64,000 nucleotides of DNA. It comes from Bacilli bacterium. Its GTDB lineage: Bacteria > Bacillota_I > Bacilli_A > ML615J-28 > CAG-313. A program made the position numbers and the translations under genes. Shown piece by piece: positions 50,759 to 61,502 of this stretch (the stretch's first letter is position 1; each line of letters begins with the position of its first letter). The stretch covers positions 174,258 through 238,257 of the forward strand of contig JAFQPO010000014.1 in the NCBI GenBank assembly GCA_017411715.1, in the 5' to 3' direction. The notes beneath the pieces were generated by a model. The model saw only the letters and a list, made by a program, of their open reading frames with translations, had not been told where the DNA came from and did not search any database.

Positions 50759-52225
50759 TTAAAATAAAATATTAGTTGCTCTTGTTAAATAGTTTTCCGC
50801 AATCATCGAAAAATCAAAGTTTAATTCAACACTAGCGCCTGATAAATGCTTAATTGTTGCGACAACAAACCATTGTAACGCAAAAAATGCAATCCACATT
50901 TCTACTATTTTTTTATTTTCTTCATAGTTATCAACATCATAATATTTAAGTAACACAAATGCATCTTCAATATTGTTATTACCAAAACATGCAATATCCA
51001 TTAAAGGATCGCCAACACAAGCAAACTCAAAGTCAAAAATTTTAATTCCTAAACGTCCTTTGACAAAATTAGATCTTTGACTATCACCATGAATAAAACA
51101 ATTTGGTCTATTGCCTAATGATGAAAGTAAGCAAAATAATTTTTCTTTTGCTTGTAAATATCTATCATTAAAAACAAATCCCATCGCAACTAAATGTCTT
51201 TCATATTCTAAATATCTAGCAACAGGATTAACAAATAGTTCTTGACTATTCACCTTGTAAGAATGAAGTCTTTTTAAAATAGCACACACATCTTCTAAAT
51301 CTGCTCCATTTAATTCGATATTTTTTAAACAATCACCATCATAAAACTTAGTAATCATTAATCCACTATCTTCTAGATATTCAAAATAGTTATCACAAAA
51401 AATTGCTTTATACACCTCAAGCGCATTTTTTTCATATTGGCGATTAACAAACACTTCTTTAGGATCATTAGAATATCTAACTACTTTGTAATCATCATTA
51501 ACAAAACATTTATAAGTGTAGTTACTCATTCCCTCAGGTATACGAGAAACTATGCCAACATTAGATGTGTGATAAACATTCTCTAGTTTCTTAGTAATTT
51601 CTTCTCTAATACTTTTTTCATGAAGTGATTCAATCATACTATACATAAATTTTGAAAAAGCACGTCCTCTGTGGCTTATTCTATTTTTATCATCTAAGCT
51701 AATTTGAGCAAATGTTTTTTGATAATCATCATAGTAAAAAATATGATCATATCCAAATCCTCTTTCGCCTCTTTCTTCATCTATAATATGGCCAGAGCAT
51801 GTCCCAACAAATGTTTGTGGAGTGTTACCATCATAATAACAAATAGTACAATGAAAAGTTGCACTAGCGGGCATATTTCCTGCTAATTTACTTCTTAGAT
51901 AATCTCTTTTTTCTTTATCGGTTGAAAAAGATCCAAATCTAGCTGAATATAAACCAGGTGCACCATCTAGTACATCAACTTCAAGCCCCGTATCATCTGC
52001 TAAAACAGGAATTTTATAATGATCATAATACGCCTTAGCTTTAATAAAAGCATTTTCTTGATAAGTTTGTCCAAATTCATCAGGTGTTTCACAAACATCA
52101 TCAAAATCACGTAATGATAGAAATTCAATATCAATTGACTTCCCCGTATCCATTAAAAATGCCTGATACATTTTTTTATATTCATTTAATTTCCCTATAT
52201 TTGATGTTCCAATTAGTATTTTCAT
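50759..52225 (-). CDS. Fusion: non-canonical purine NTP pyrophosphatase (Ham1/RdgB) + aminoglycoside-phosphotransferase/choline-kinase-like kinase domain
   Basis: N-terminus MKILIGTSNIGKLNEY...DTGLEVDVLDGAPGLYSARF (ITPase fold); C-terminal about 300 aa with HGD (IHGDSQRSNF) and D-F-E (IFDFEFACVGDPLMD) kinase motifs; start at ATG 52225 with GGGGGA SD. Confidence 0.75.
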   Translation of the reverse strand: MKILIGTSNIGKLNEYKKMYQAFLMDTGKSIDIEFLSLRDFDDVCETPDEFGQTYQENAFIKAKAYYDHYKIPVLADDTGLEVDVLDGAPGLYSARFGSFSTDKEKRDYLRSKLAGNMPASATFHCTICYYDGNTPQTFVGTCSGHIIDEERGERGFGYDHIFYYDDYQKTFAQISLDDKNRISHRGRAFSKFMYSMIESLHEKSIREEITKKLENVYHTSNVGIVSRIPEGMSNYTYKCFVNDDYKVVRYSNDPKEVFVNRQYEKNALEVYKAIFCDNYFEYLEDSGLMITKFYDGDCLKNIELNGADLEDVCAILKRLHSYKVNSQELFVNPVARYLEYERHLVAMGFVFNDRYLQAKEKLFCLLSSLGNRPNCFIHGDSQRSNFVKGRLGIKIFDFEFACVGDPLMDIACFGNNNIEDAFVLLKYYDVDNYEENKKIVEMWIAFFALQWFVVATIKHLSGASVELNFDFSMIAENYLTRATNILF

Positions 52226-52312
52226 AAATTCCCCCAATTTGTAATATATTATACCAAATCTTTATCAGTTTTTCACATACTTTGCAAAATAAAAAACTCA
52301 GAAAATCTGAGT

Positions 52313-53167
52313 TTATTCTTGTTGTGTAATATCTATTTCATACAATACAGTTTCTAAATCATTTAAACTAAAACGATTAATATCGAAATTAAGCATAACA
52401 CTAGTTGATAAATCATCAATAACACCACTTGGTAAAACGCTTTTATCATTAAATGTCATATTCAAATAATCTACACCTAATTCATAATCATACAAATCAC
52501 TAACACTAGAAGTATCTAGTATTTTAGATACAATATAATCACAAACATCACTATTTAAATGAAAATACGTTGTCGCGATAGTTTGCGTTTCTGTTGTTTT
52601 AACAATAGTAGTTGCGGTTGCTTCATGTAAAAACATCGTTTCGTATGTAAAATTAATACCGATATCTTTAGTTAATTTTTTAAATGTGAAATCATTGAAA
52701 TTACTGATGACTTCATCATTTACTTTTAAAACGACTTCTTTTATGTCATGTTCACAAAATGTCCAAACAATTGCTTCGGCTGCTTTTCTACCAAATGAGG
52801 TTGTGATATCGCTAGTTGTGCTAATTGATAATACATTTTCTTCAATCTTATAATCTACTAAATTCGCTTTATTTGATAAAACTGATGAATATCCATCAGG
52901 TAATAATTCTTGATGCGTAGTAAGTAATTCCCATTTTTGTCTAATTTCATCTGACATTGTTAATTTAGAAGCATCTTCTTGACTAAGAGCTACTACTTGC
53001 CCGATTAATTTACCACTATCATTTAACGCAAAAACCTTCTCGGAATATACAATATTAATAATCTCATCATTATTACCAAGTGATCTTTTATAAATATAAC
53101 CTGGTAATAACACCGCTGTTAAAACTAAAACACCTAAAACTATTGATACTAAAATTTTCTTTTTCAT
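52313..53167 (-). CDS. Hypothetical secreted/membrane-anchored protein (N-terminal signal anchor, 284 aa)
   Basis: MKKKILVSIVLGVLVLTAVLL hydrophobic N-terminus; no catalytic motif recognised. Confidence 0.35.
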   Translation of the reverse strand: MKKKILVSIVLGVLVLTAVLLPGYIYKRSLGNNDEIINIVYSEKVFALNDSGKLIGQVVALSQEDASKLTMSDEIRQKWELLTTHQELLPDGYSSVLSNKANLVDYKIEENVLSISTTSDITTSFGRKAAEAIVWTFCEHDIKEVVLKVNDEVISNFNDFTFKKLTKDIGINFTYETMFLHEATATTIVKTTETQTIATTYFHLNSDVCDYIVSKILDTSSVSDLYDYELGVDYLNMTFNDKSVLPSGVIDDLSTSVMLNFDINRFSLNDLETVLYEIDITQQE

Positions 53168-54320: not shown

Positions 54321-54348
54321 AAAAGTCTGTTTTCAAAACAGACTTTTT
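54321..54348. terminator. Bidirectional terminator between CPBP gene (+) and hup (-)
   Basis: aaaa-agtctgtttt-c-aaaacagact-ttttt palindrome flanked by A and T runs. Confidence 0.75.
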
Positions 54349-54628
54349 ATTTACCCTGATTTAAATCATCTTTTAATTTTTTGCCCATCGAAAAGCTGAC
54401 TTTATTAGAACCTTTGATCATCATTCTTTCACCTGTTGCAGGGTTAACGCCAAAGTATTCTTTTTGATATACTTTCTCAAACGTTCCAAAATCAGATATC
54501 ATAACTTTACCATCTTCAATTAGGCCAAGTGCCATCAATTTGAAAGTTTCATTAACAATATCTTCAATTACTTGTTTTTGATAAGAACTATTTTCATAAA
54601 TAGCAGTTACAATATCTTTCTTTTTCAT
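54347..54628 (-). CDS. hup: DNA-binding protein HU
   Basis: 93-aa HU/IHF fold (DFGTFE...NPATGE...); adjacent to spoIVA as hbs in B. subtilis. Confidence 0.85.
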   Translation of the reverse strand: MKKKDIVTAIYENSSYQKQVIEDIVNETFKLMALGLIEDGKVMISDFGTFEKVYQKEYFGVNPATGERMMIKGSNKVSFSMGKKLKDDLNQGK

Positions 54629-54673: not shown

Positions 54674-56152
54674 TTATAATATTATAGCAATTACTCCACC
54701 ACGACCATCATTAATTACTTTTGATAATGATTCTTTATATTTAAATTCAACATCACTAGGCACATTATAAACTTTAGCTTTAATACCATCAACCATTACA
54801 TCACTAAGTTTACGGCCAAAAATCTCACTATTCCAGATTTCTTCAATATCACTATCAAATTGATTATTCATATGATTAATTAAAGCTTGTGATTGTTCTT
54901 CTGTACCAATAATTGGTTCAAAAGTTGTCTCCACATCAACTCTTACCATATGAATAGCCGGTGCGGTTGCTTTTAATTTAATACCATATCGACCATTTTG
55001 TTTAATTAATTCAGGTTTATCTAAAACCATATCAGCTTGAGATGGTATTGCTAAGCCATAGCCTACTTCATTTAGTGATGCCATAGCCGGTTTAATCTTT
55101 TGATAATGAGTTTTAGCCTCTACCATTTCTTGGAGTAGATCGATAAATGAAGCTTTATCTGAAATATCAATCCCTGTAATTTCCAAAGTAACATCATTAT
55201 AAACACTTTCATCTACATCAAGTTCAAATGTAACAACTCCAGTTCCTGGATTAATATCACTGATTGCAACATTTTCGAATATATCGCAACTTGCTAAACT
55301 ATCTCTAACACTAAAAATATCTCGCATTTTACGATTACCATTAGTCGTAGAATCAATTAATTCATTAAATCTTGCTTTATAACTAACATTATCACTTAAA
55401 TTCTTAAACCAATCTGGTACTAAAATATTCATTTCTGCTATTTCAAACTCATCAAGAGCTTTTTCTAATATTTTATCTACTTCATTTGCGTCCATATTAG
55501 CAACATCGACCGCAATTACACTAACATTATACTTTTGGCTAAGTGACTCTACTAATTCATTTACTTCTAATGAATTAGGATTTTTTGTATTTAATAAAAT
55601 AATAAATGGTTTATTCAAAGTTACTAACTCTTCTATAACTTTAGCTTCAACTTCTTCATAATCACTACGTTCAAATTCTCCAAATGAACCATCACTAGTT
55701 ACCACAATCCCAATATTAGAATGTGATTCAATTACTTTCTTAGTACCAATTATAGCAGCTTCTTCAAAAGGTATTTCTTCTTGGAACCATGGAGTTTTAA
55801 CTAAACGATTACTACCATCTTCATTTAAATACCCACTTGCCTTAGGCATAACAAATCCAACACAATCAACTAGTCTAATTTGACAAGACACTGACTCGCC
55901 AACTTCAATTTTAAAATTGTTACTCGGAACAAACTTAGGTTCAACAGTCATTACCATTTTACCATCACCACTTAGTGGTAATTCATCCGCAATTTTTTGA
56001 TAAAATTCTTGATCTTCAATTAGTGGTAATACTTTTGCTTCCATGAAACGACGAATGAAAGTACTTTTACCACTTCTTACCGCACCAACAATACCTAGAT
56101 AAATCTCACCTTTAGTACGTAGTGCTACTTCTGATATTACATTATCACTCAT
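54674..56152 (-). CDS. spoIVA: Stage IV sporulation protein A (SpoIVA ATPase, spore coat basement layer)
   Basis: N-terminus aligns to B. subtilis SpoIVA (GEIYLGIVGAVRSGKSTFIRRFME... versus GDIYLGVVGAVRTGKSTFIKKFME...); 492 aa. Confidence 0.85.
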   Translation of the reverse strand: MSDNVISEVALRTKGEIYLGIVGAVRSGKSTFIRRFMEAKVLPLIEDQEFYQKIADELPLSGDGKMVMTVEPKFVPSNNFKIEVGESVSCQIRLVDCVGFVMPKASGYLNEDGSNRLVKTPWFQEEIPFEEAAIIGTKKVIESHSNIGIVVTSDGSFGEFERSDYEEVEAKVIEELVTLNKPFIILLNTKNPNSLEVNELVESLSQKYNVSVIAVDVANMDANEVDKILEKALDEFEIAEMNILVPDWFKNLSDNVSYKARFNELIDSTTNGNRKMRDIFSVRDSLASCDIFENVAISDINPGTGVVTFELDVDESVYNDVTLEITGIDISDKASFIDLLQEMVEAKTHYQKIKPAMASLNEVGYGLAIPSQADMVLDKPELIKQNGRYGIKLKATAPAIHMVRVDVETTFEPIIGTEEQSQALINHMNNQFDSDIEEIWNSEIFGRKLSDVMVDGIKAKVYNVPSDVEFKYKESLSKVINDGRGGVIAIIL

Positions 56153-56910: not shown

Positions 56911-57645
56911 TTATTTCTTATATTGATTAATTAAGTTAATTAATCTATCATACTCATTATTAAGTAATTCAACTAATAATGCTTTGAAAGGTTCCATAGT
57001 TTTTTCAACTTTGAAAGCTTCTAAGCTCGCAAAATAAGTTGTACGTACTTTAGTTTTACGAGAAATACTTACTGGTAAGAAACCATTAGCAATTAAGAAG
57101 TAATTCATCATTAAACGAGCAAGACGACCATTACCATCTAGGAATGGATGGATTTTTGCGATTTGTAAATGAGCATAACATACTTTGTCTAATACATCAC
57201 CTTGATAATTATTAATATCAAAGAAGAATTTGTTCATACGGTCATATACTTTAACGTAGTCACAAGGAATATGGCTAGATCCTTTGATTGTAATGTTAAC
57301 ATTACGATATAATCCACCTGGAATAATACCATTCATTAATAATTCATGAAGATCTTTTAAATAATCTTCAGTTAGGATAGGATTAGCTTCTGCTTTTTCT
57401 TTAACATCTTTATAAGCAAGGTAATGATTATAAACGCTGCGTACTAATGTTCCATCTCTTTTTACTGAGAAACCCATACCTTTAGTAATTGAAACAACTT
57501 CTTCAGTAGAAATTTCATAACCTTCGATACAAGCAGAGTTTCTTGTATAAACCCAAGCAAAGTTTTGATGGAATGCTTCTAACTCTTCAGCAGGTACAAA
57601 ATGTAAGTTTTCCGCTACATAAGCTTTTTTCTCTAATAAGTTCAT
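56911..57645 (-). CDS. Fic-family AMPylase-type protein with N-terminal inhibitory motif
   Basis: Canonical HPFLDGNGRLAR Fic motif; upstream SACIEG = [S/T]xxxE[G/N] alpha-inh; start moved to ATG 57645 (GAGGA SD 8 nt upstream). Confidence 0.8.
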   Translation of the reverse strand: MNLLEKKAYVAENLHFVPAEELEAFHQNFAWVYTRNSACIEGYEISTEEVVSITKGMGFSVKRDGTLVRSVYNHYLAYKDVKEKAEANPILTEDYLKDLHELLMNGIIPGGLYRNVNITIKGSSHIPCDYVKVYDRMNKFFFDINNYQGDVLDKVCYAHLQIAKIHPFLDGNGRLARLMMNYFLIANGFLPVSISRKTKVRTTYFASLEAFKVEKTMEPFKALLVELLNNEYDRLINLINQYKK

Positions 57646-57663
57646 AATCTTAATCCTCATTTC

Positions 57664-57763: not shown

Positions 57764-58387
57764 TTATTCTTTATTTTCAATTTGTTTTTTCAATTTTTCA
57801 AGTTCTTCTTCAAGACGTTTTACTTCAGAATTATCTTCTTTTTTCTCTTTTTTAGGGAAGAATGTTCGCCAATAAGGTATTAATACCGCAAGACCAACTA
57901 AGAAGATAAAGAAACAAATTCCCGTAGGTGAAGTAATAATATCTCTTAAAATACCAAATCCACTAAATTTAACATCAGTATATTTACCTAAAATATCATC
58001 ATGTAAAAACTCATAGTCTTCTTCTTCACCTGTAAAATCACCAGCTGTTTTTACCGCGTATAATTTTCCAGATTCATCATACAGCAATTTAGTAATACGA
58101 TGAGTAGTAACAGATTGACCACTTTCATCATAGGCTCTATCAATATAAGTTATGATATCTCCAACTTCTAAATTATCTGTATCCACTTTTCTTACGATTA
58201 TTAAATCTCCCACACTAAGGGTTGGAACCATACTACCTGTTTCAACATTAAATGCATAAAAACCCAACATCGATGGTGCTGGGTTTTTAAATACAAATTT
58301 TGATATCATAGCATAGCACACTAAAATAGTAAACAATCCAACAATTGAATACCAAATAATACTAAAAACCGTTTTAATCTTTTTCAT
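57764..58387 (-). CDS. sipW: Signal peptidase I, SipW (archaeal/ER) type, copy 1, with C-terminal TM + coiled-coil tail
   Basis: N-terminal signal anchor, catalytic GSMVPTL (SipW SGSMEP-type), conserved His; C-terminal TM then KRLEEELEKLKKQIENKE; start set at ATG 58387. Confidence 0.7.
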   Translation of the reverse strand: MKKIKTVFSIIWYSIVGLFTILVCYAMISKFVFKNPAPSMLGFYAFNVETGSMVPTLSVGDLIIVRKVDTDNLEVGDIITYIDRAYDESGQSVTTHRITKLLYDESGKLYAVKTAGDFTGEEEDYEFLHDDILGKYTDVKFSGFGILRDIITSPTGICFFIFLVGLAVLIPYWRTFFPKKEKKEDNSEVKRLEEELEKLKKQIENKE

Positions 58388-59828
58388 TAGGTGTGATCTC
58401 TTGAGCAGCAGTAATAGTAATTGACATACTATAGCCATTTACTCCAGTACGACCAATTTCAGTATCTTGTGCATCATCATACTCATACCATGTCCATTCA
58501 ACCATAAATTGAACTTTTGAGTTAGCTTCAATAATTATACCTTGTAAGCTTAAATCTTCGAGTTTAACATAGCCTGAGTCAACAGCGCCTTCACTATCAG
58601 TACCCTTAACATAAACGTTATTCATTCTTAATTTATAACGCATTGGAATACCATCTACATTAGTATGTGAGAATTTAATATCATAGCGGATTGGTAAGTC
58701 ATCATTATTTGATAAGAAGAATGTGTAAGCACCTTTTAATCCTGGCTTTAATAATGTTGATCCATCGTAATCAGGATTTCCAAACACATCGATATTTTCA
58801 TTTTGAGACCAAGAGATAGGATTACCTAGTTCATCAAATCTAGCATCAGTTACTTCAAAAACAGGATATTCAATTGGACGCTTATTATATTGATCTAAAA
58901 TAATACCTATTCCACAAAGCGATAATAGGAAAAGGAATAGAATACATAATACTAAGATAATTGGAAAACTCTTGTGTTGGTGTTCAGTTCTGACAACAGC
59001 AGCTGGAATTCCGTCATCATCTTTCCCATCTGAAACAATCCCATTTTCAATATAAGGATAAAACTCATTAAAATTAACTTCTTGATAATCAGGGTTCTTA
59101 GAAACTTTAATATCTTCCATTAAAACACTAATCATATCTAGTGTACGATCTAATTCTTGATCAGTACGAACATATAAATTAAGTGTTCCATTAGAAATAA
59201 GTATTTTATCAAGTTCACTAACAACTTTTTTCAAGCGTCGCATCTTAGTTTTAGATTTAAACTCTAAACTAACACATAATGTATGTGCAACAAATGACAT
59301 TTCAGCAACAACAACCCCATCAAGTGAGAATGTTTCATTCTTTAATGTCATATTAGATGTAACACCTTGATAACTTAATAACTCATTTTTAATAATTGAA
59401 TAATAATTCTTATAAAGAAGCTCATTTTGTCTTAATATATTTTCAAATGTACGTGGTAAGAAAACTGTTCTTACTAATGTCATATCAATTTTCTTATTCA
59501 TATTAGGAATAACATTAGGTTTAATATGACTATATTCTTCATCAAGTTCATTTAAAATATCAGCTTCACGTTTTTCTTTTAAAAGATCATACCCTTCAGC
59601 ATTATCAAATAGTTCACGTGATCCATGAGAAAGTGTTGGAACACCAGGTCTTGTAGGTTTAGGCGCAGTATCAACTGGTGCATTAGCTTTTAAAAACTCT
59701 TCATCAGTAAACACTTCAGCAACTAGTGGTGACTTAGGCGTTTTAATACTCTCAGAGCTATCAGATGAGCCTGTTACTTCACGATTAGATGTATGATGGG
59801 AAAGCTTAGGTTTCTTTTCATCAGCCAT
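58374..59828 (-). CDS. Type-II membrane protein: about 290-aa cytoplasmic N-domain, single TM, about 170-aa ectodomain paralogous to the adjacent TasA-like secreted protein
   Basis: TM FPIILVLCILFLFLLSLCGIGII at about aa 295-317; ectodomain motifs LKPG..T...N..D, KFSHT, EWTWYEYDDAQDTEIGRTG, AAQEI align with LAPG..T...N..D, FTFTHS, DWAWVDTLEQNTIDTKVG, AEQIE of the 217-aa neighbour; AGGAGG SD. Confidence 0.45.
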   Translation of the reverse strand: MADEKKPKLSHHTSNREVTGSSDSSESIKTPKSPLVAEVFTDEEFLKANAPVDTAPKPTRPGVPTLSHGSRELFDNAEGYDLLKEKREADILNELDEEYSHIKPNVIPNMNKKIDMTLVRTVFLPRTFENILRQNELLYKNYYSIIKNELLSYQGVTSNMTLKNETFSLDGVVVAEMSFVAHTLCVSLEFKSKTKMRRLKKVVSELDKILISNGTLNLYVRTDQELDRTLDMISVLMEDIKVSKNPDYQEVNFNEFYPYIENGIVSDGKDDDGIPAAVVRTEHQHKSFPIILVLCILFLFLLSLCGIGIILDQYNKRPIEYPVFEVTDARFDELGNPISWSQNENIDVFGNPDYDGSTLLKPGLKGAYTFFLSNNDDLPIRYDIKFSHTNVDGIPMRYKLRMNNVYVKGTDSEGAVDSGYVKLEDLSLQGIIIEANSKVQFMVEWTWYEYDDAQDTEIGRTGVNGYSMSITITAAQEITPNEKD

Positions 59829-59850
59829 AATGTTCCTCCTTTCTAATAAA

Positions 59851-59921
59851 AAATTTCAGTCCTTGATAAAAGATTCAAAACCTTAAATCCTTTAGCAAAG
59901 ACTGAAATAAAATTTCAGTCT
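59851..59921 (-). promoter_or_regulatory. Intercistronic alternative-hairpin element (direct repeat AAATTTCAGTC x2 + complementary GACTGAAAT) between the TasA-like gene and the anchored paralogue
   Basis: 59900-08 gactgaaat is the perfect complement of both 59912-20 and 59853-61 atttcagtc; a 9-bp/3-nt-loop hairpin directly after the TasA-like stop, or a long-range pairing ending 10 nt from the downstream SD. Confidence 0.5.
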
Positions 59922-59936
59922 AAAATTTCTAATTAA

Positions 59937-60554
59937 TTAAGCAAGAGTAGCTGGATCATCTTCAATTTGTTCAGCTAATAATTTGTATGCAACAGTCCAA
60001 GTAGCTTTATCAGCAAGTCTACCAACTTTAGTATCAATAGTATTTTGTTCTAGAGTATCTACCCAAGCCCAATCTAAAGTCAAAGTAATTACTGCACTTT
60101 CACCTTCTTTAAGTGTAAACTCTTTAAATTCATTTAAATCAGCTTTTGTAGAAGTTTCTGCTACATCTTCAGCATCAACAACTGTATCGATTGCATATTT
60201 GTAAGCGACAGGATTTTGTAATTCTAAGCTTGCATCGCCAACAAAGATTACATCAAATGAATGAGTGAAAGTAAATTTTAAAGTAACATCAGATTCGTTT
60301 TCAACAGTTAAAGTAATAGTTTCTCCATATCCAGGAGCTAGTTTAGTAGCTTCAAATTTAAATTCATCAGCAACAGATCCATTATTATCTGCAACATCAT
60401 TAACTGTCCAAGCATATTTTGCGGCTTGAATAGTTTGAGTACCAGCATCAATTTCACTTGTATATTTAGCATATGTAGAACCTACGAAAGTTAAACTTGC
60501 ACATACTAAAGCAAAAGTGAATAATCCAAATAATAATACACGATTTCTTTTCAT
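59937..60554 (-). CDS. Small secreted protein with SipW-cognate (TasA/CalY-class) signal peptide; putative TasA-like fibre/matrix subunit
   Basis: MKRNRVLLFGLFTFALVCASLTFVGSTYAKYTSE: basic N-region, hydrophobic core, G-S-T-Y-A-x-Y-x-S resembling the GGTWAAFND / GGTFAxFxD SipW-cognate motif; beta-rich about 170-aa mature part; flanked by two sipW genes; start moved to ATG 60554 (AAGGAGA SD). Confidence 0.45.
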   Translation of the reverse strand: MKRNRVLLFGLFTFALVCASLTFVGSTYAKYTSEIDAGTQTIQAAKYAWTVNDVADNNGSVADEFKFEATKLAPGYGETITLTVENESDVTLKFTFTHSFDVIFVGDASLELQNPVAYKYAIDTVVDAEDVAETSTKADLNEFKEFTLKEGESAVITLTLDWAWVDTLEQNTIDTKVGRLADKATWTVAYKLLAEQIEDDPATLA

Positions 60555-60622: not shown

Positions 60623-61423
60623 TTATTTTCCTTTCTGTGATTCTTCAACTTCTTCAGTTGAATCACTCATAGATGTATTTGATTGTTGCTCAGCTAGAGC
60701 TTTTAAACGAGCTATTTCAGCTTCTAATTCCTTCGTTTTGTCTTGTTCTCCTTTATTATCACCCTTTAATGATAATAATAATACAATCACGAATAATGAT
60801 AAAGGTAAAATTATACATAAAATAGTACCAAGTGGTTTACTAACAAACTTCGCAAAACTTCCTAATTTAGGAATACGACCAGAATAGAATCCCACAACAT
60901 CATCCAAATCATAAGTTAACACGGGAGCAGGTTTATTAGGATTGTAATTTTTTAATCCTTTTGTATCAATAACCCATTCACCGTTTTCATTTTGATAAAC
61001 TTTTTGAAGAATATGAGTAACTAAGTAAAAGTCTTTTGAATTTTGTTTGTACTCCTTATACGTTATGTATACATTTTTTCCATTATAATCACCATTTTTT
61101 AAAGCTTCAATATCTTCATCAGTGATATTTTTAGAGAAAACTAAATCTCCAACCATTATTTCAGGTTCCATAGAGTCAGAATCAACCATACGAGGAGTAA
61201 TTCCGAAAACAGATGGTGCCTCATCAGGATTTGCAAGACCTTTAATAATGATAGTAAAGTTGACAATTAAAACTGGAATCATCAAGAGGATTAATACTGA
61301 ACCAATTATAAAACCAGCCCATGAAGCTTTAGTTGTCGGCTTATTGTTTTGCCAGTATTTTTTTAATTTTGATTCTGGCTTTTCACTTAAGCTTTGTGAA
61401 TTTTGATCTTTTTCTAGGTCCAT
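60623..61423 (-). CDS. sipW: Signal peptidase I, SipW type, copy 2, with N-terminal cytoplasmic extension and C-terminal TM + coiled-coil tail
   Basis: DSDSMEPEIMVGDLV catalytic Ser motif, conserved His; C-terminal TM then KTKELEAEIARLKALAEQQ; AAGGAGGG SD. Confidence 0.65.
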   Translation of the reverse strand: MDLEKDQNSQSLSEKPESKLKKYWQNNKPTTKASWAGFIIGSVLILLMIPVLIVNFTIIIKGLANPDEAPSVFGITPRMVDSDSMEPEIMVGDLVFSKNITDEDIEALKNGDYNGKNVYITYKEYKQNSKDFYLVTHILQKVYQNENGEWVIDTKGLKNYNPNKPAPVLTYDLDDVVGFYSGRIPKLGSFAKFVSKPLGTILCIILPLSLFVIVLLLSLKGDNKGEQDKTKELEAEIARLKALAEQQSNTSMSDSTEEVEESQKGK

Positions 61424-61465: not shown

Positions 61466-61502
61466 TGTACAATATTATAGCATTGTTAAACTTAATTTGC
61501 AA
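61466..61502 (-). promoter_or_regulatory. Strong sigma-A-type promoter of the sipW/TasA-like operon
   Basis: Minus strand TTGCAA(-35, 61497-502)-17 bp-TGcTATAAT(-10, 61474-82), about 45 nt upstream of the sipW-2 SD. Confidence 0.6.

Follow-up and report, generated by a model that had tools for sequence, protein, structure and literature searches.

In Bacillus subtilis, the nucleation of TasA fibres by TapA proceeds through strand complementation (PMC10151520). TapA itself is secreted after cleavage by SipW, and its β-sandwich differs from that of TasA (PMC9245690). In Clostridium perfringens, BsaA forms oligomers attached to the membrane, and its paralogue BsaB bears an LPXTG signal in most strains (PMC11580942). 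Descriptions of bacterial TasA-superfamily/AbpX loci include LPXTG or SLH anchors (PMC11580942; bioRxiv 10.64898/2026.01.04.697558), and for archaeal Tafi loci a pilus-anchor role has been proposed for TafF1 and TafF2, in each of which a jelly roll comes after a single transmembrane segment (TM) (PMC12337348). The attachment of TasA-type matrix fibres to Gram-positive cells is unsettled; an anchoring role for TapA is debated, and BsaA fibres appear to be attached to the membrane with no identified anchor. In chaperone-usher pili (PapH-type terminators) and sortase pili (basal pilins), the fibre is held on the envelope by a minor paralogue of the major subunit, added either at the end or at the start of assembly. 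These pili are unrelated in fold family and in assembly machinery to the system described below, in which no usher, chaperone or sortase is involved.

Here we describe a locus in a 64,000-nucleotide stretch of DNA (the window) from an uncultured spore-forming gut bacterium, in which a 484-aa membrane protein most probably attaches an extracellular protein fibre to the cell. The original prediction for this protein, a fibre-subunit-like domain tethered to the membrane with a large cytoplasmic module, had set its topology apart from that of TapA, and this difference is borne out, since TapA is secreted after SipW cleavage and has another β-sandwich (PMC9245690). The novelty thereby implied was overstated: both TM-plus-jelly-roll anchors (PMC12337348) and LPXTG/SLH anchors (PMC11580942; bioRxiv 10.64898/2026.01.04.697558) had already been proposed. 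The cytoplasmic fusion is the sole part that could be new biology.

Gene order of the locus and its conservation

The locus comprises the following elements, listed in the direction of transcription:

61474..61502, minus strand: promoter-like site 5' of the first sipW (TTGCAA, 17 nt spacer, TG-TATAAT), a consensus match only (10/12, extended -10)
60623..61423, minus strand: upstream SipW-type (archaeal/ER-type) signal peptidase I, 266 aa (TIGR02228 55.0 bits; SipW model E 5e-17)
59937..60554, minus strand: gene for the 205-aa secreted major subunit (homologue starts at M13; signal peptide ends with GSTYA, before KYTSE)
59844..59908, minus strand: long RNA hairpin and U-tract between the major-subunit and 484-aa genes (MFE -29.8 kcal/mol, z -4.2)
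58374..59828, minus strand: gene for the 484-aa bitopic membrane protein (open reading frame with ribosome-binding site; stop codon 58374-58376)
57764..58387, minus strand: downstream SipW-type signal peptidase I, ~207 aa (TIGR02228 66.1 bits)

The 484-aa protein is the product of a real, conserved gene. A strong AGGAGG ribosome-binding site lies 7 nt 5' of its ATG, records of the same protein come from numerous contigs (NCBI MBQ3001997.1, 'hypothetical protein', Bacilli bacterium MAG), and a 76%-identical homologue is found with unchanged gene order in a second locus, L001. The neighbouring 217-aa open reading frame has its true start at M13, where its homologues start, giving a protein of 205 aa with an invariant signal peptide. 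The end of this signal, G-T-Y-A-[KR]-Y-T-S, is conserved in 40+ major-subunit loci and absent from the anchored family.

Both flanking sipW genes pass the TIGR02228 cut-off of 51.85 bits. By position they form two classes, and a sequence has its nearest neighbour in its own class in 30/30 and 19/22 cases. Members of one class are 38-44% identical, compared with ~31-32% for members of different classes, even when the two come from a single locus. Both classes retain the catalytic Ser and His, which in the upstream enzyme stand alongside the changes THR to THI and GD to GL. The downstream sipW begins inside the 3' end of the 484-aa gene, its ATG giving an overlap of 14 nt that is also present in L001. 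The intergenic hairpin is almost identical in L001, and a similar one is present in the distant locus L002. It has no match in Rfam and was not called by a strict terminator scan; it is a candidate attenuator or stability element.

The cassette of sipW, secreted subunit, membrane-anchored paralogue and second sipW recurs in ~60 gut and rumen Firmicutes genomes. Loci were found with a hand-made degenerate DNA pattern, which gave 74 matches including ~9 chance ones in unrelated phyla. A homologue of the 217-aa gene lies directly 5' of the family gene in 41 of the 49 observable loci, sipW lies directly 3' in 24 loci, and even the distant homologue P0014 is flanked by the same trio. The 484-aa gene belongs to a large unannotated family whose members follow the major-subunit gene in such cassettes in Clostridia and Bacilli from gut and rumen; none of the anchored, major-subunit and cytoplasmic-domain families is covered by Pfam or NCBIfam. 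Encoding beside a dedicated SipW-type signal peptidase, a trait of the TasA superfamily, is a feature of this locus, in an arrangement conserved across dozens of others.

The sporulation genes SpoIVA and Germane adjoin the locus, and a Fic gene with a SoFic-like match lies downstream. A phage or defence origin, prompted by this last gene, was rejected, as Fic falls outside the conserved cassette except in the closest relative. Searches of PHROGs and PADLOC gave no match for the 484-aa or 217-aa protein.

Like TapA-SipW-TasA of B. subtilis, the locus encodes a dedicated ER/archaeal-type signal peptidase with its predicted β-sandwich cargo, and a minor component alongside a major one. It differs in possessing two SipW paralogues rather than one, in the order sipW-major-minor-sipW, and in sequence, since none of Pfam, NCBIfam and hhalign gives a significant match to TasA/Peptidase_M73. 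Moreover, the minor and major components are here paralogues of each other, and the minor one has an apparently uncleaved TM and a ~285-aa cytoplasmic part. The sipW-bsaA-bsaB(-bsaC) locus of C. perfringens (PMC11580942), compared here by its description, shares the order sipW, major subunit, paralogue, and the LPXTG of BsaB in most strains is paralleled by LPXTG-like signals on some members of the anchored family; in contrast, anchoring here would be by an N-terminal TM rather than by sortase, and no VWA protein is encoded. TafF1/TafF2 of the haloarchaeal Tat-fimbriae (PMC12337348) are archaeal, Tat-dependent and without a cytoplasmic domain, whereas the anchored family occurs in bacteria, is linked to Sec/SipW and greatly exceeds in size what has been described; in both, the anchor role is a model-based proposal.

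Topology and predicted folds of the 484-aa protein

Four regions can be discerned within the protein:

59484..59828, minus strand: acidic, mostly disordered cytoplasmic N-terminus, aa 1-115 (AF2 pLDDT, composition, alignment)
59031..59471, minus strand: cytoplasmic α/β 'mid' domain, aa 120-266 (YjbR / DUF1801 / MotA-CTD-like predicted fold)
58899..58967, minus strand: single TM (signal-anchor), aa 288-310 (hydropathy; AF2 helix 288-315; family positive-inside statistics)
58401..58871, minus strand: extracellular β-sandwich domain, aa 320-476 (paralogous to the neighbouring secreted subunit; predicted fold TasA-like)

Relatives were collected by exhaustive HMMER search (1102 hits); word-indexed searches gave only 2 proteins for the full-length query and 4 for a 12-sequence alignment. 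The AF2 model was made from a balanced 68-row alignment that put ~91% of fragment residues in the correct place. With 99 rows, MAFFT wrongly aligned fragments of the mid domain to the ectodomain, and a 2-sequence alignment gave a pLDDT of 40.

Residues 1-100 had been described as low-complexity and S/P/E-rich. The S/P/E content stands, but the composition of aa 1-115 (E 13%, S 11%, K 9%, P 8%) indicates an acidic and disordered region rather than a strictly low-complexity one. AF2 pLDDT is <50 at aa 1-72 and 99-113, with one predicted helix at aa 77-98, and blocks of this region are conserved in the 76% homologue (alignment with P0002). The folded domain anticipated at about aa 100-290 is recovered as aa 120-266, confidently folded with AF2 pLDDT mostly >90.

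The only hydrophobic segment, FPIILVLCILFLFLLSLCGIGII (aa 288-310, Kyte-Doolittle up to 3.04), is followed by 174 residues, in agreement with the single TM and about 170 extracellular residues of the original prediction. The TM flanks of the 484-aa protein itself are charge-neutral, with 2 K/R on each side. Three independent lines from the family uphold the predicted type-II (N-in/C-out) topology. Across 56 family members, the 15 residues flanking the TM contain 269 K+R before it and 142 after. Variants with a cleavable signal and an LPXTG-like C-terminal sorting signal, and no TM (P0111, P0118, P0142 and P0150; Gram_pos_anchor matches), place the ectodomain outside the cell, with anchoring achieved by another route. 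Lastly, mid-domain proteins that lack the ectodomain (n=33) feature an N-terminal TM with 28 K+R before and 139 after, an N-out/C-in arrangement from which it follows that the mid domain is cytoplasmic. The inverted topology, with the mid domain outside and the β-domain inside, was rejected, being at odds with the K+R counts, with the LPXTG variants and with the N-out anchors of the mid-only proteins.

Kinship between the ectodomain and the neighbouring secreted protein had been proposed from ordered motifs shared by the two, and these motifs are confirmed. Pairwise BLASTP is marginal (E 0.008, 21% identity), but profile methods find the relationship significant. Alignment of the ectodomain-family and 217-family profiles by hhalign, with the TM left out, gave a probability of 96.6% (E 6.7e-10, 125 columns). 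A 217-family profile built without the window sequence gave the ectodomain (aa 316-484) a score of 26.8 bits, against at most 7.6 for 2000 shuffles; in the reverse leave-out test, the ectodomain-family profile scored the neighbour at 17.8 bits (shuffle maximum 8.1). Judged by these comparisons, the ectodomain is a diverged paralogue of a putatively SipW-dependent, TasA-superfamily-like secreted subunit.

In both fold searches the best β-sandwich match is the TasA fibre (8AUR), but generic β-sandwiches score nearly as high. Filament subunits AbpA and DUF1102 are also among the matches, and the L-x-P-G...F-x-F-x-N motif, P-G(x6)F-x-[FL]-x-N, has spacing identical to that of TasA. PF12389 (Peptidase_M73, TasA/camelysin) has no match in the 484-aa protein, the 217-aa protein or 66 ectodomain-family members (E up to 5), and when the family profiles were aligned with the TasA sequence by hhalign the probabilities were only 0.3% and 11%. 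The TapA model TIGR04087 (YqxM_for_SipW) gives no hit in the 484-aa protein up to an E of 1, and PDB sequence searches with the family profiles returned nothing relevant.

For the mid domain, fold comparison found an MmcQ/YjbR-like match (CyaY-like fold; PF04237 / PF08818 / PF04993). Its fold resembles those of MmcQ/YjbR (PF04237), DUF1801/YdhG (PF08818) and the C-terminal 'double-wing' of T4 MotA, but Pfam gives it no significant match, the 68 alignment members yielding a single weak DUF1801 (E 0.028) and TfoX_N (E 0.02). Unlike those domains it is neutral rather than basic (net charge -1, compared with an average of +7.4 in mid-only proteins), and in its own large family it forms membrane-tethered repeats. 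The domain stems from this second family, likewise unannotated, whose members are cytoplasmic repeat proteins tethered to the membrane. Its relatives there are basic, and several have a uL15-like domain at their end. The order mid, TM, ecto is seen again in a diverse set of proteins (P0014, P0021, P0033, P0074, P0100 and others), and most ectodomain-family members feature a short cytoplasmic tail.

A proposed cell-proximal anchor and its alternatives

The best explanation of the whole, which we hold with slightly better than even confidence, is that the 484-aa protein acts as a cell-proximal anchor, terminator or nucleator of a donor-strand fibre, with a cytoplasmic extension. To the architecture, topology, paralogy, predicted fold and synteny established by this analysis, we infer that polymerisation, anchoring, non-cleavage and a role for the inner domain may be added as follows. 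The major subunit would be exported and its signal peptide cut by SipW between GSTYA and KYTSE, after which donation of the N-terminal strand to the next subunit would polymerise the major subunits, as for TasA and BsaA. The paralogue of the same fold would stay membrane-bound, by a hydrophobic segment without the SipW-cognate motif, and strand complementation would bring it into the fibre as the cell-proximal base. The hairpin between the two genes would keep it sub-stoichiometric. In this lineage the anchor would have gained a cytoplasmic extension, a disordered acidic tail and one YjbR/MotA-CTD-like domain borrowed from the membrane-tethered repeat family, which probably positions or regulates it via an intracellular partner. 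An anchor or nucleator role would fit both the conserved synteny and the LPXTG-bearing family members.

Cleavage of this 'anchor' is made conceivable by the dedicated second SipW next to its gene, and a cleaved pro-protein, though unlikely, is the alternative that survives best. The hydrophobic segment would then be a SipW-type signal peptide with a very large N-region, cut by the downstream SipW near C305-G-I-G308 to yield a soluble minor subunit, a TapA-like tip or nucleator, with the TM and cytoplasmic stub degraded or signalling. TapA has a long signal peptide that is cleaved by SipW. The two SipW positions hold separate classes, both with catalytic Ser and His, and the downstream gene, besides its 14-nt overlap here and in L001, adjoins the family gene in 24 loci; a downstream-class enzyme with its catalytic residues kept and translationally coupled by overlap hints that the TM may be cleaved. 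The small residues at the TM end (S-L-C-G-I-G) could meet the -3/-1 rule, and the conserved outer juxtamembrane motif, R-I-G-K-I-G in Clostridia members and C-G-I-G in the 484-aa protein, could be a processing site. However, the common R-I-G-K-I-G form sets charged residues at the would-be -3, the hydrophobic stretch has a typical signal-anchor length (~20-23 residues), and the anchored family lacks the G-T-Y-A-K-Y-T-S motif at which the major subunit is cut after the Ala. In the 484-aa protein the internal TM runs into C-G-I-G-I-I-L-D, with no SipW-cognate signal end (G-G-T-x-A / A-F-x-D-like), and neither it nor the 205-aa protein matches the NCBIfam SipW-cargo models. The original prediction had pointed to Ala-x-Ala near aa 317-325 as a possible site; none follows the TM, C305-G-I-G308 being the only small-residue cluster. 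Large folded cytoplasmic domains recur before the TM, which would be unusual for a throw-away signal peptide, and members with a normal cleavable signal carry LPXTG instead, suggesting that attachment is a conserved property.

That filament assembly is coupled to something inside the cell, as originally suggested, is speculation. In its specific form, added to the anchor reading, the cytoplasmic domain would couple the base of the extracellular TasA-like fibre to a nucleic-acid or ribosome-associated partner, or the protein, once cut by the second SipW, would signal the state of the fibre to the cell interior, which we consider quite doubtful. If true, the 484-aa protein would be a genuine trans-envelope link, for example placing subunit translation and secretion at the assembly site. 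It is similarly improbable, and a little more so, that the protein is a transmembrane sensor or regulator, its ectodomain binding the secreted paralogue or fibre and signalling inward via the 'double-wing' domain, whether as a membrane-tethered nucleic-acid-binding regulator or by recruitment of a cytoplasmic partner. The mid domain has lost most of its basic residues (net -1), and its fold class also holds non-DNA-binding proteins such as frataxin/CyaY and YdhG; furthermore, the short cytoplasmic tail of most ectodomain-family members means that signalling cannot be the core family function.

Least probable of all is that the two paralogues form no fibre and are ordinary Ig-like/β-sandwich surface proteins (adhesin, spore/envelope-associated), one of them secreted and the other membrane-bound, exported by a dedicated SipW-type peptidase. 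TasA was originally described as spore-associated. PDB 5OF1 names it 'Spore coat-associated protein N', SpoIVA and Germane adjoin the locus, TasA/camelysin sequence models fail to match and generic β-sandwiches rival TasA in the fold searches; yet the TasA fibre tops the β-sandwich matches in both searches, with AbpA and DUF1102 filament subunits also found, the P-G(x6)F-x-[FL]-x-N spacing is that of TasA, and the cleaved subunit is strictly paired with an anchored paralogue beside SipW genes, like known donor-strand loci (PMC11580942, PMC12337348).

The anchor reading yields experimentally tractable predictions, namely a cleaved and an uncleaved paralogue, one SipW per substrate, and a stoichiometry set by the intergenic hairpin. 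As all three protein families are absent from Pfam and NCBIfam, defining them would improve the annotation of many gut genomes. Overall, for the attachment of TasA-type fibres in gut and rumen Firmicutes, the locus points to a simple and widespread answer: a fibre-subunit paralogue that keeps its membrane segment, its gene lying directly behind that of the major subunit and usually ahead of one for a second, specialised SipW.

Locus organization and an intergenic hairpin

Downstream of mutS2, the window annotation shows five genes on the minus strand in the order sipW-type, secreted protein, 484-aa ORF, second sipW-type and Fic, with an RNA hairpin between the second and third:

60623-61423, minus strand: SipW-type signal peptidase, upstream copy
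59937-60554, minus strand: small secreted protein, 205 aa from its real start at M13
59844-59908, minus strand: RNA hairpin followed by a U-tract, between the major-subunit and 484-aa genes (MFE -29.8 kcal/mol, z -4.2)
58374-59828, minus strand: 484-aa ORF, preceded by an AGGAGG ribosome-binding site
57764-58387, minus strand: second SipW-type peptidase, with a 14-nt overlap between its start (ATG) and the 3' end of the 484-aa gene
56911-57660, minus strand: Fic-domain gene (PF02661, E 8e-22; PADLOC SoFic-like, E 1e-25)

The 484-aa protein is deposited as MBQ3001997.1, a "hypothetical protein" of an uncultured Bacilli bacterium, and the G+C content of the window is approximately 30%. A homolog with 76% identity lies on contig L001, the closest related locus, in an identical five-gene order. 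The Fic gene follows the cassette there too (L001:4072-4806), and does so in neither the distant locus L002 nor the other loci. Nearby genes in the window encode two sporulation proteins, SpoIVA with all three of its Pfam domains (54674-56152) and a Germane-domain protein (52313-53167), as well as an HU-like DNA-binding protein (54347-54628) and a Ham1-type NTP pyrophosphatase fused to an APH-type kinase domain (50759-52237); this company indicates that the uncultured host is an endospore former.

The hairpin is almost identical at L001:1810-1870, although the flanking proteins are just 51-76% identical, and a counterpart at L002:7319-7365 has the core GGAUUUAAG...GAAUC in common. No Rfam model matched it. 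The hairpin and its U-tract fit a lowered expression of the downstream genes.

Paralogy and predicted fold of the ectodomain

The original prediction proposed that the ectodomain shares ordered motifs with the neighboring secreted protein. By pairwise BLASTP this similarity is marginal (E 0.008, 21% identity), the alignment being partly of the TM against the signal peptide. An exhaustive HMMER search returned 1102 matches, which split into two independent modules: a mid domain (aa ~120-266), found as repeats in proteins as long as 1744 aa, and the TM plus C-terminal domain (aa ~288-475), which makes up entire proteins of 190-290 aa, hereafter the anchored family. A profile of the latter module (66 sequences) aligned to the neighbor's family with a probability of 96.6% and E 6.7e-10 over 125 columns, TM excluded. 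Each profile was then remade without the window sequences, and the other partner scored against 2000 shuffles, giving 26.8 bits where no shuffle surpassed 7.6, and 17.8 bits where none surpassed 8.1. Because these scores exceed every shuffle, the paralogy is real, and the motifs first listed for the pair prove to be conserved columns of both families.

An AF2 prediction from a balanced 68-row alignment gives a disordered N-terminus (pLDDT <50 at aa 1-72 and 99-113) with a helix at 77-98, an α/β domain at 120-266 (pLDDT mostly >90), a helix at 288-315, and a β-sandwich at 324-476 (10-residue block means 71-97). By sequence, the protein does not qualify as a member of the TasA/camelysin family: neither Pfam nor NCBIfam has a model that matches, and hhalign of the family profiles against the TasA sequence, checked as identical to 8AUR, yields probabilities of 0.3-11%. 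The best local alignment is the common P-G(x6)F-x-[FL]-x-N motif, in unchanged register. Since these sequence-level tests fail, "TasA-like" is a claim on fold and context, short of demonstrated family membership.

Membrane topology and the cytoplasmic domain

The sole candidate membrane span is the hydrophobic segment at aa 288-310, whose own flanks are charge-neutral. In 56 genes of the family taken together, K+R number 269 in the 15 residues preceding the TM and 142 in the 15 that follow it. Some family members (P0111, P0118, P0142 and P0150) lack an N-terminal TM and instead combine a cleavable signal peptide with a C-terminal LPXTG-like sorting signal, so that in these the ectodomain is a surface domain. 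Moreover, 33 mid-domain proteins without an ectodomain feature a TM at the extreme N-terminus with 28 K+R before and 139 after, which puts their mid repeats in the cytoplasm. Charges, LPXTG variants and mid-only anchors are thus three independent lines of evidence for a cytoplasmic N-terminus and an extracellular C-terminal domain.

The mid domain, of YjbR-like "double-wing" fold, matches no Pfam model, and it defines a large unannotated family (P0013-P0161, e.g. P0018, P0029 and P0034). A typical relative consists of a membrane anchor in N-out orientation followed by an acidic, low-complexity linker and then 2-6 basic, YjbR-like mid repeats of mean net charge +7.4. In eight of the listed relatives the C-terminus is formed by a ribosomal uL15-like domain (PF00828, E 1.2e-8 for P0029). 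In the copy carried by the 484-aa protein the core Y-x(3)-K-N...E-x-F motif is retained, but few of the basic residues remain (net -1). Most anchored-family members have only a short K/R-rich tail, which makes this copy of the mid domain a lineage-specific addition. A sensor or regulator acting via the double-wing domain is one of the less likely readings of the protein.

A conserved cassette and the proposed role of the anchored paralog

Species-representative genomes were scanned with a degenerate DNA pattern covering two motifs of the family, which retrieved 74 loci, about 65 of them genuine, in MAGs of Clostridia, Bacilli and Erysipelotrichaceae from gut and rumen. By local HMM annotation, the secreted gene lies immediately upstream of the anchored-family gene in 41/49 observable cases and a sipW immediately downstream in 24, with a further sipW upstream of the major gene in many loci. 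The layout is strikingly constant. Even a distant homolog, P0014, has the mid-TM-ectodomain architecture, its gene preceded by those of a SipW and a 192-aa protein of the secreted family (hhalign probability 98.9%).

Several variants were observed. The signal peptide MKRNRxLLxGLFTFALVCxSLTFVGSTYAKYTSE is near-invariant in secreted homologs only 40-55% identical in their mature part, one of which (P0008, 332 aa) has an additional Ala-rich, helical C-terminal extension. An H-N-C subtype of the anchored family, from Bacilli and Erysipelotrichaceae (L005, L008, L009, L012, L016, L021, L040, L044, L060, L063, L070, L072), continues with P-T-G-N-(V/I)-D-I-x-E-x-x-C, and some of its proteins (400-550 aa) carry a ~300-aa Cys-rich extracellular insertion; a sipW lies within the 8-kb neighborhood in 6/24 of its loci, versus 22/26 for the R-I-G-K-I-G subtype. 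Several long anchored members (P0033, P0041, P0074, P0099, P0100, P0125) feature another conserved cytoplasmic juxtamembrane module, R-x-K-V-V-D-x-x-G-x-K-I-G-K-V-R...G-Y-V-D-K-N-D-N-I, absent from the 484-aa protein and possibly the source of weak Pfam beta-flower matches in some members (Bflower_2, best E 6e-5).

The best-supported reading is that the 484-aa protein would be a membrane-bound, sub-stoichiometric paralog of a SipW-processed fiber subunit, forming the fiber's cell-proximal base as anchor, terminator or nucleator; polymerization, non-cleavage and anchoring are all inferred. The reading is suggested by the paralogy, by how strictly the two genes are paired, by the exchange of an N-terminal TM for a C-terminal LPXTG within the family, and by precedents. 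BsaA fibers show membrane-attached behavior, and most strains have an LPXTG on BsaB (PMC11580942). A role as pilus anchor has been proposed for TafF1 and for TafF2, both built of one TM and a jelly roll (PMC12337348). LPXTG and SLH proteins of AbpX loci are predicted to enter the fiber by strand complementation (bioRxiv 10.64898/2026.01.04.697558), and strand complementation is also how TapA acts on TasA (PMC10151520).

The main rival is that the dedicated downstream SipW cuts the 484-aa protein after its TM, freeing the ectodomain. Upstream and downstream SipWs of the window and loci L001-L077 form two distinct classes by position (same-class nearest neighbor in 30/30 and 19/22), both retaining the catalytic Ser and His; the window's upstream copy has THI for THR and GL for GD in boxes otherwise conserved. 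Cleavage is a serious possibility because this separate, conserved class is translationally coupled to the 484-aa gene. The signal-peptide end G-T-Y-A-[KR]-Y-T-S, conserved in the secreted family, is missing from the anchored family, which after its TM has R-I-G-K-I-G (C-G-I-G in the 484-aa protein) or H-N-C...P-T-G-N instead. A surface-protein pair unrelated to fibers is less likely.

The general idea that a TasA-superfamily locus can include a minor paralog serving as anchor has been published before. New here are a bacterial family, very large and unannotated, whose paralogs are anchored by an N-terminal TM, the sipW/major/anchor/sipW cassette with its two specialized peptidases, and the fusion, in the 484-aa gene, to a cytoplasmic YjbR-like domain of a second unannotated family.
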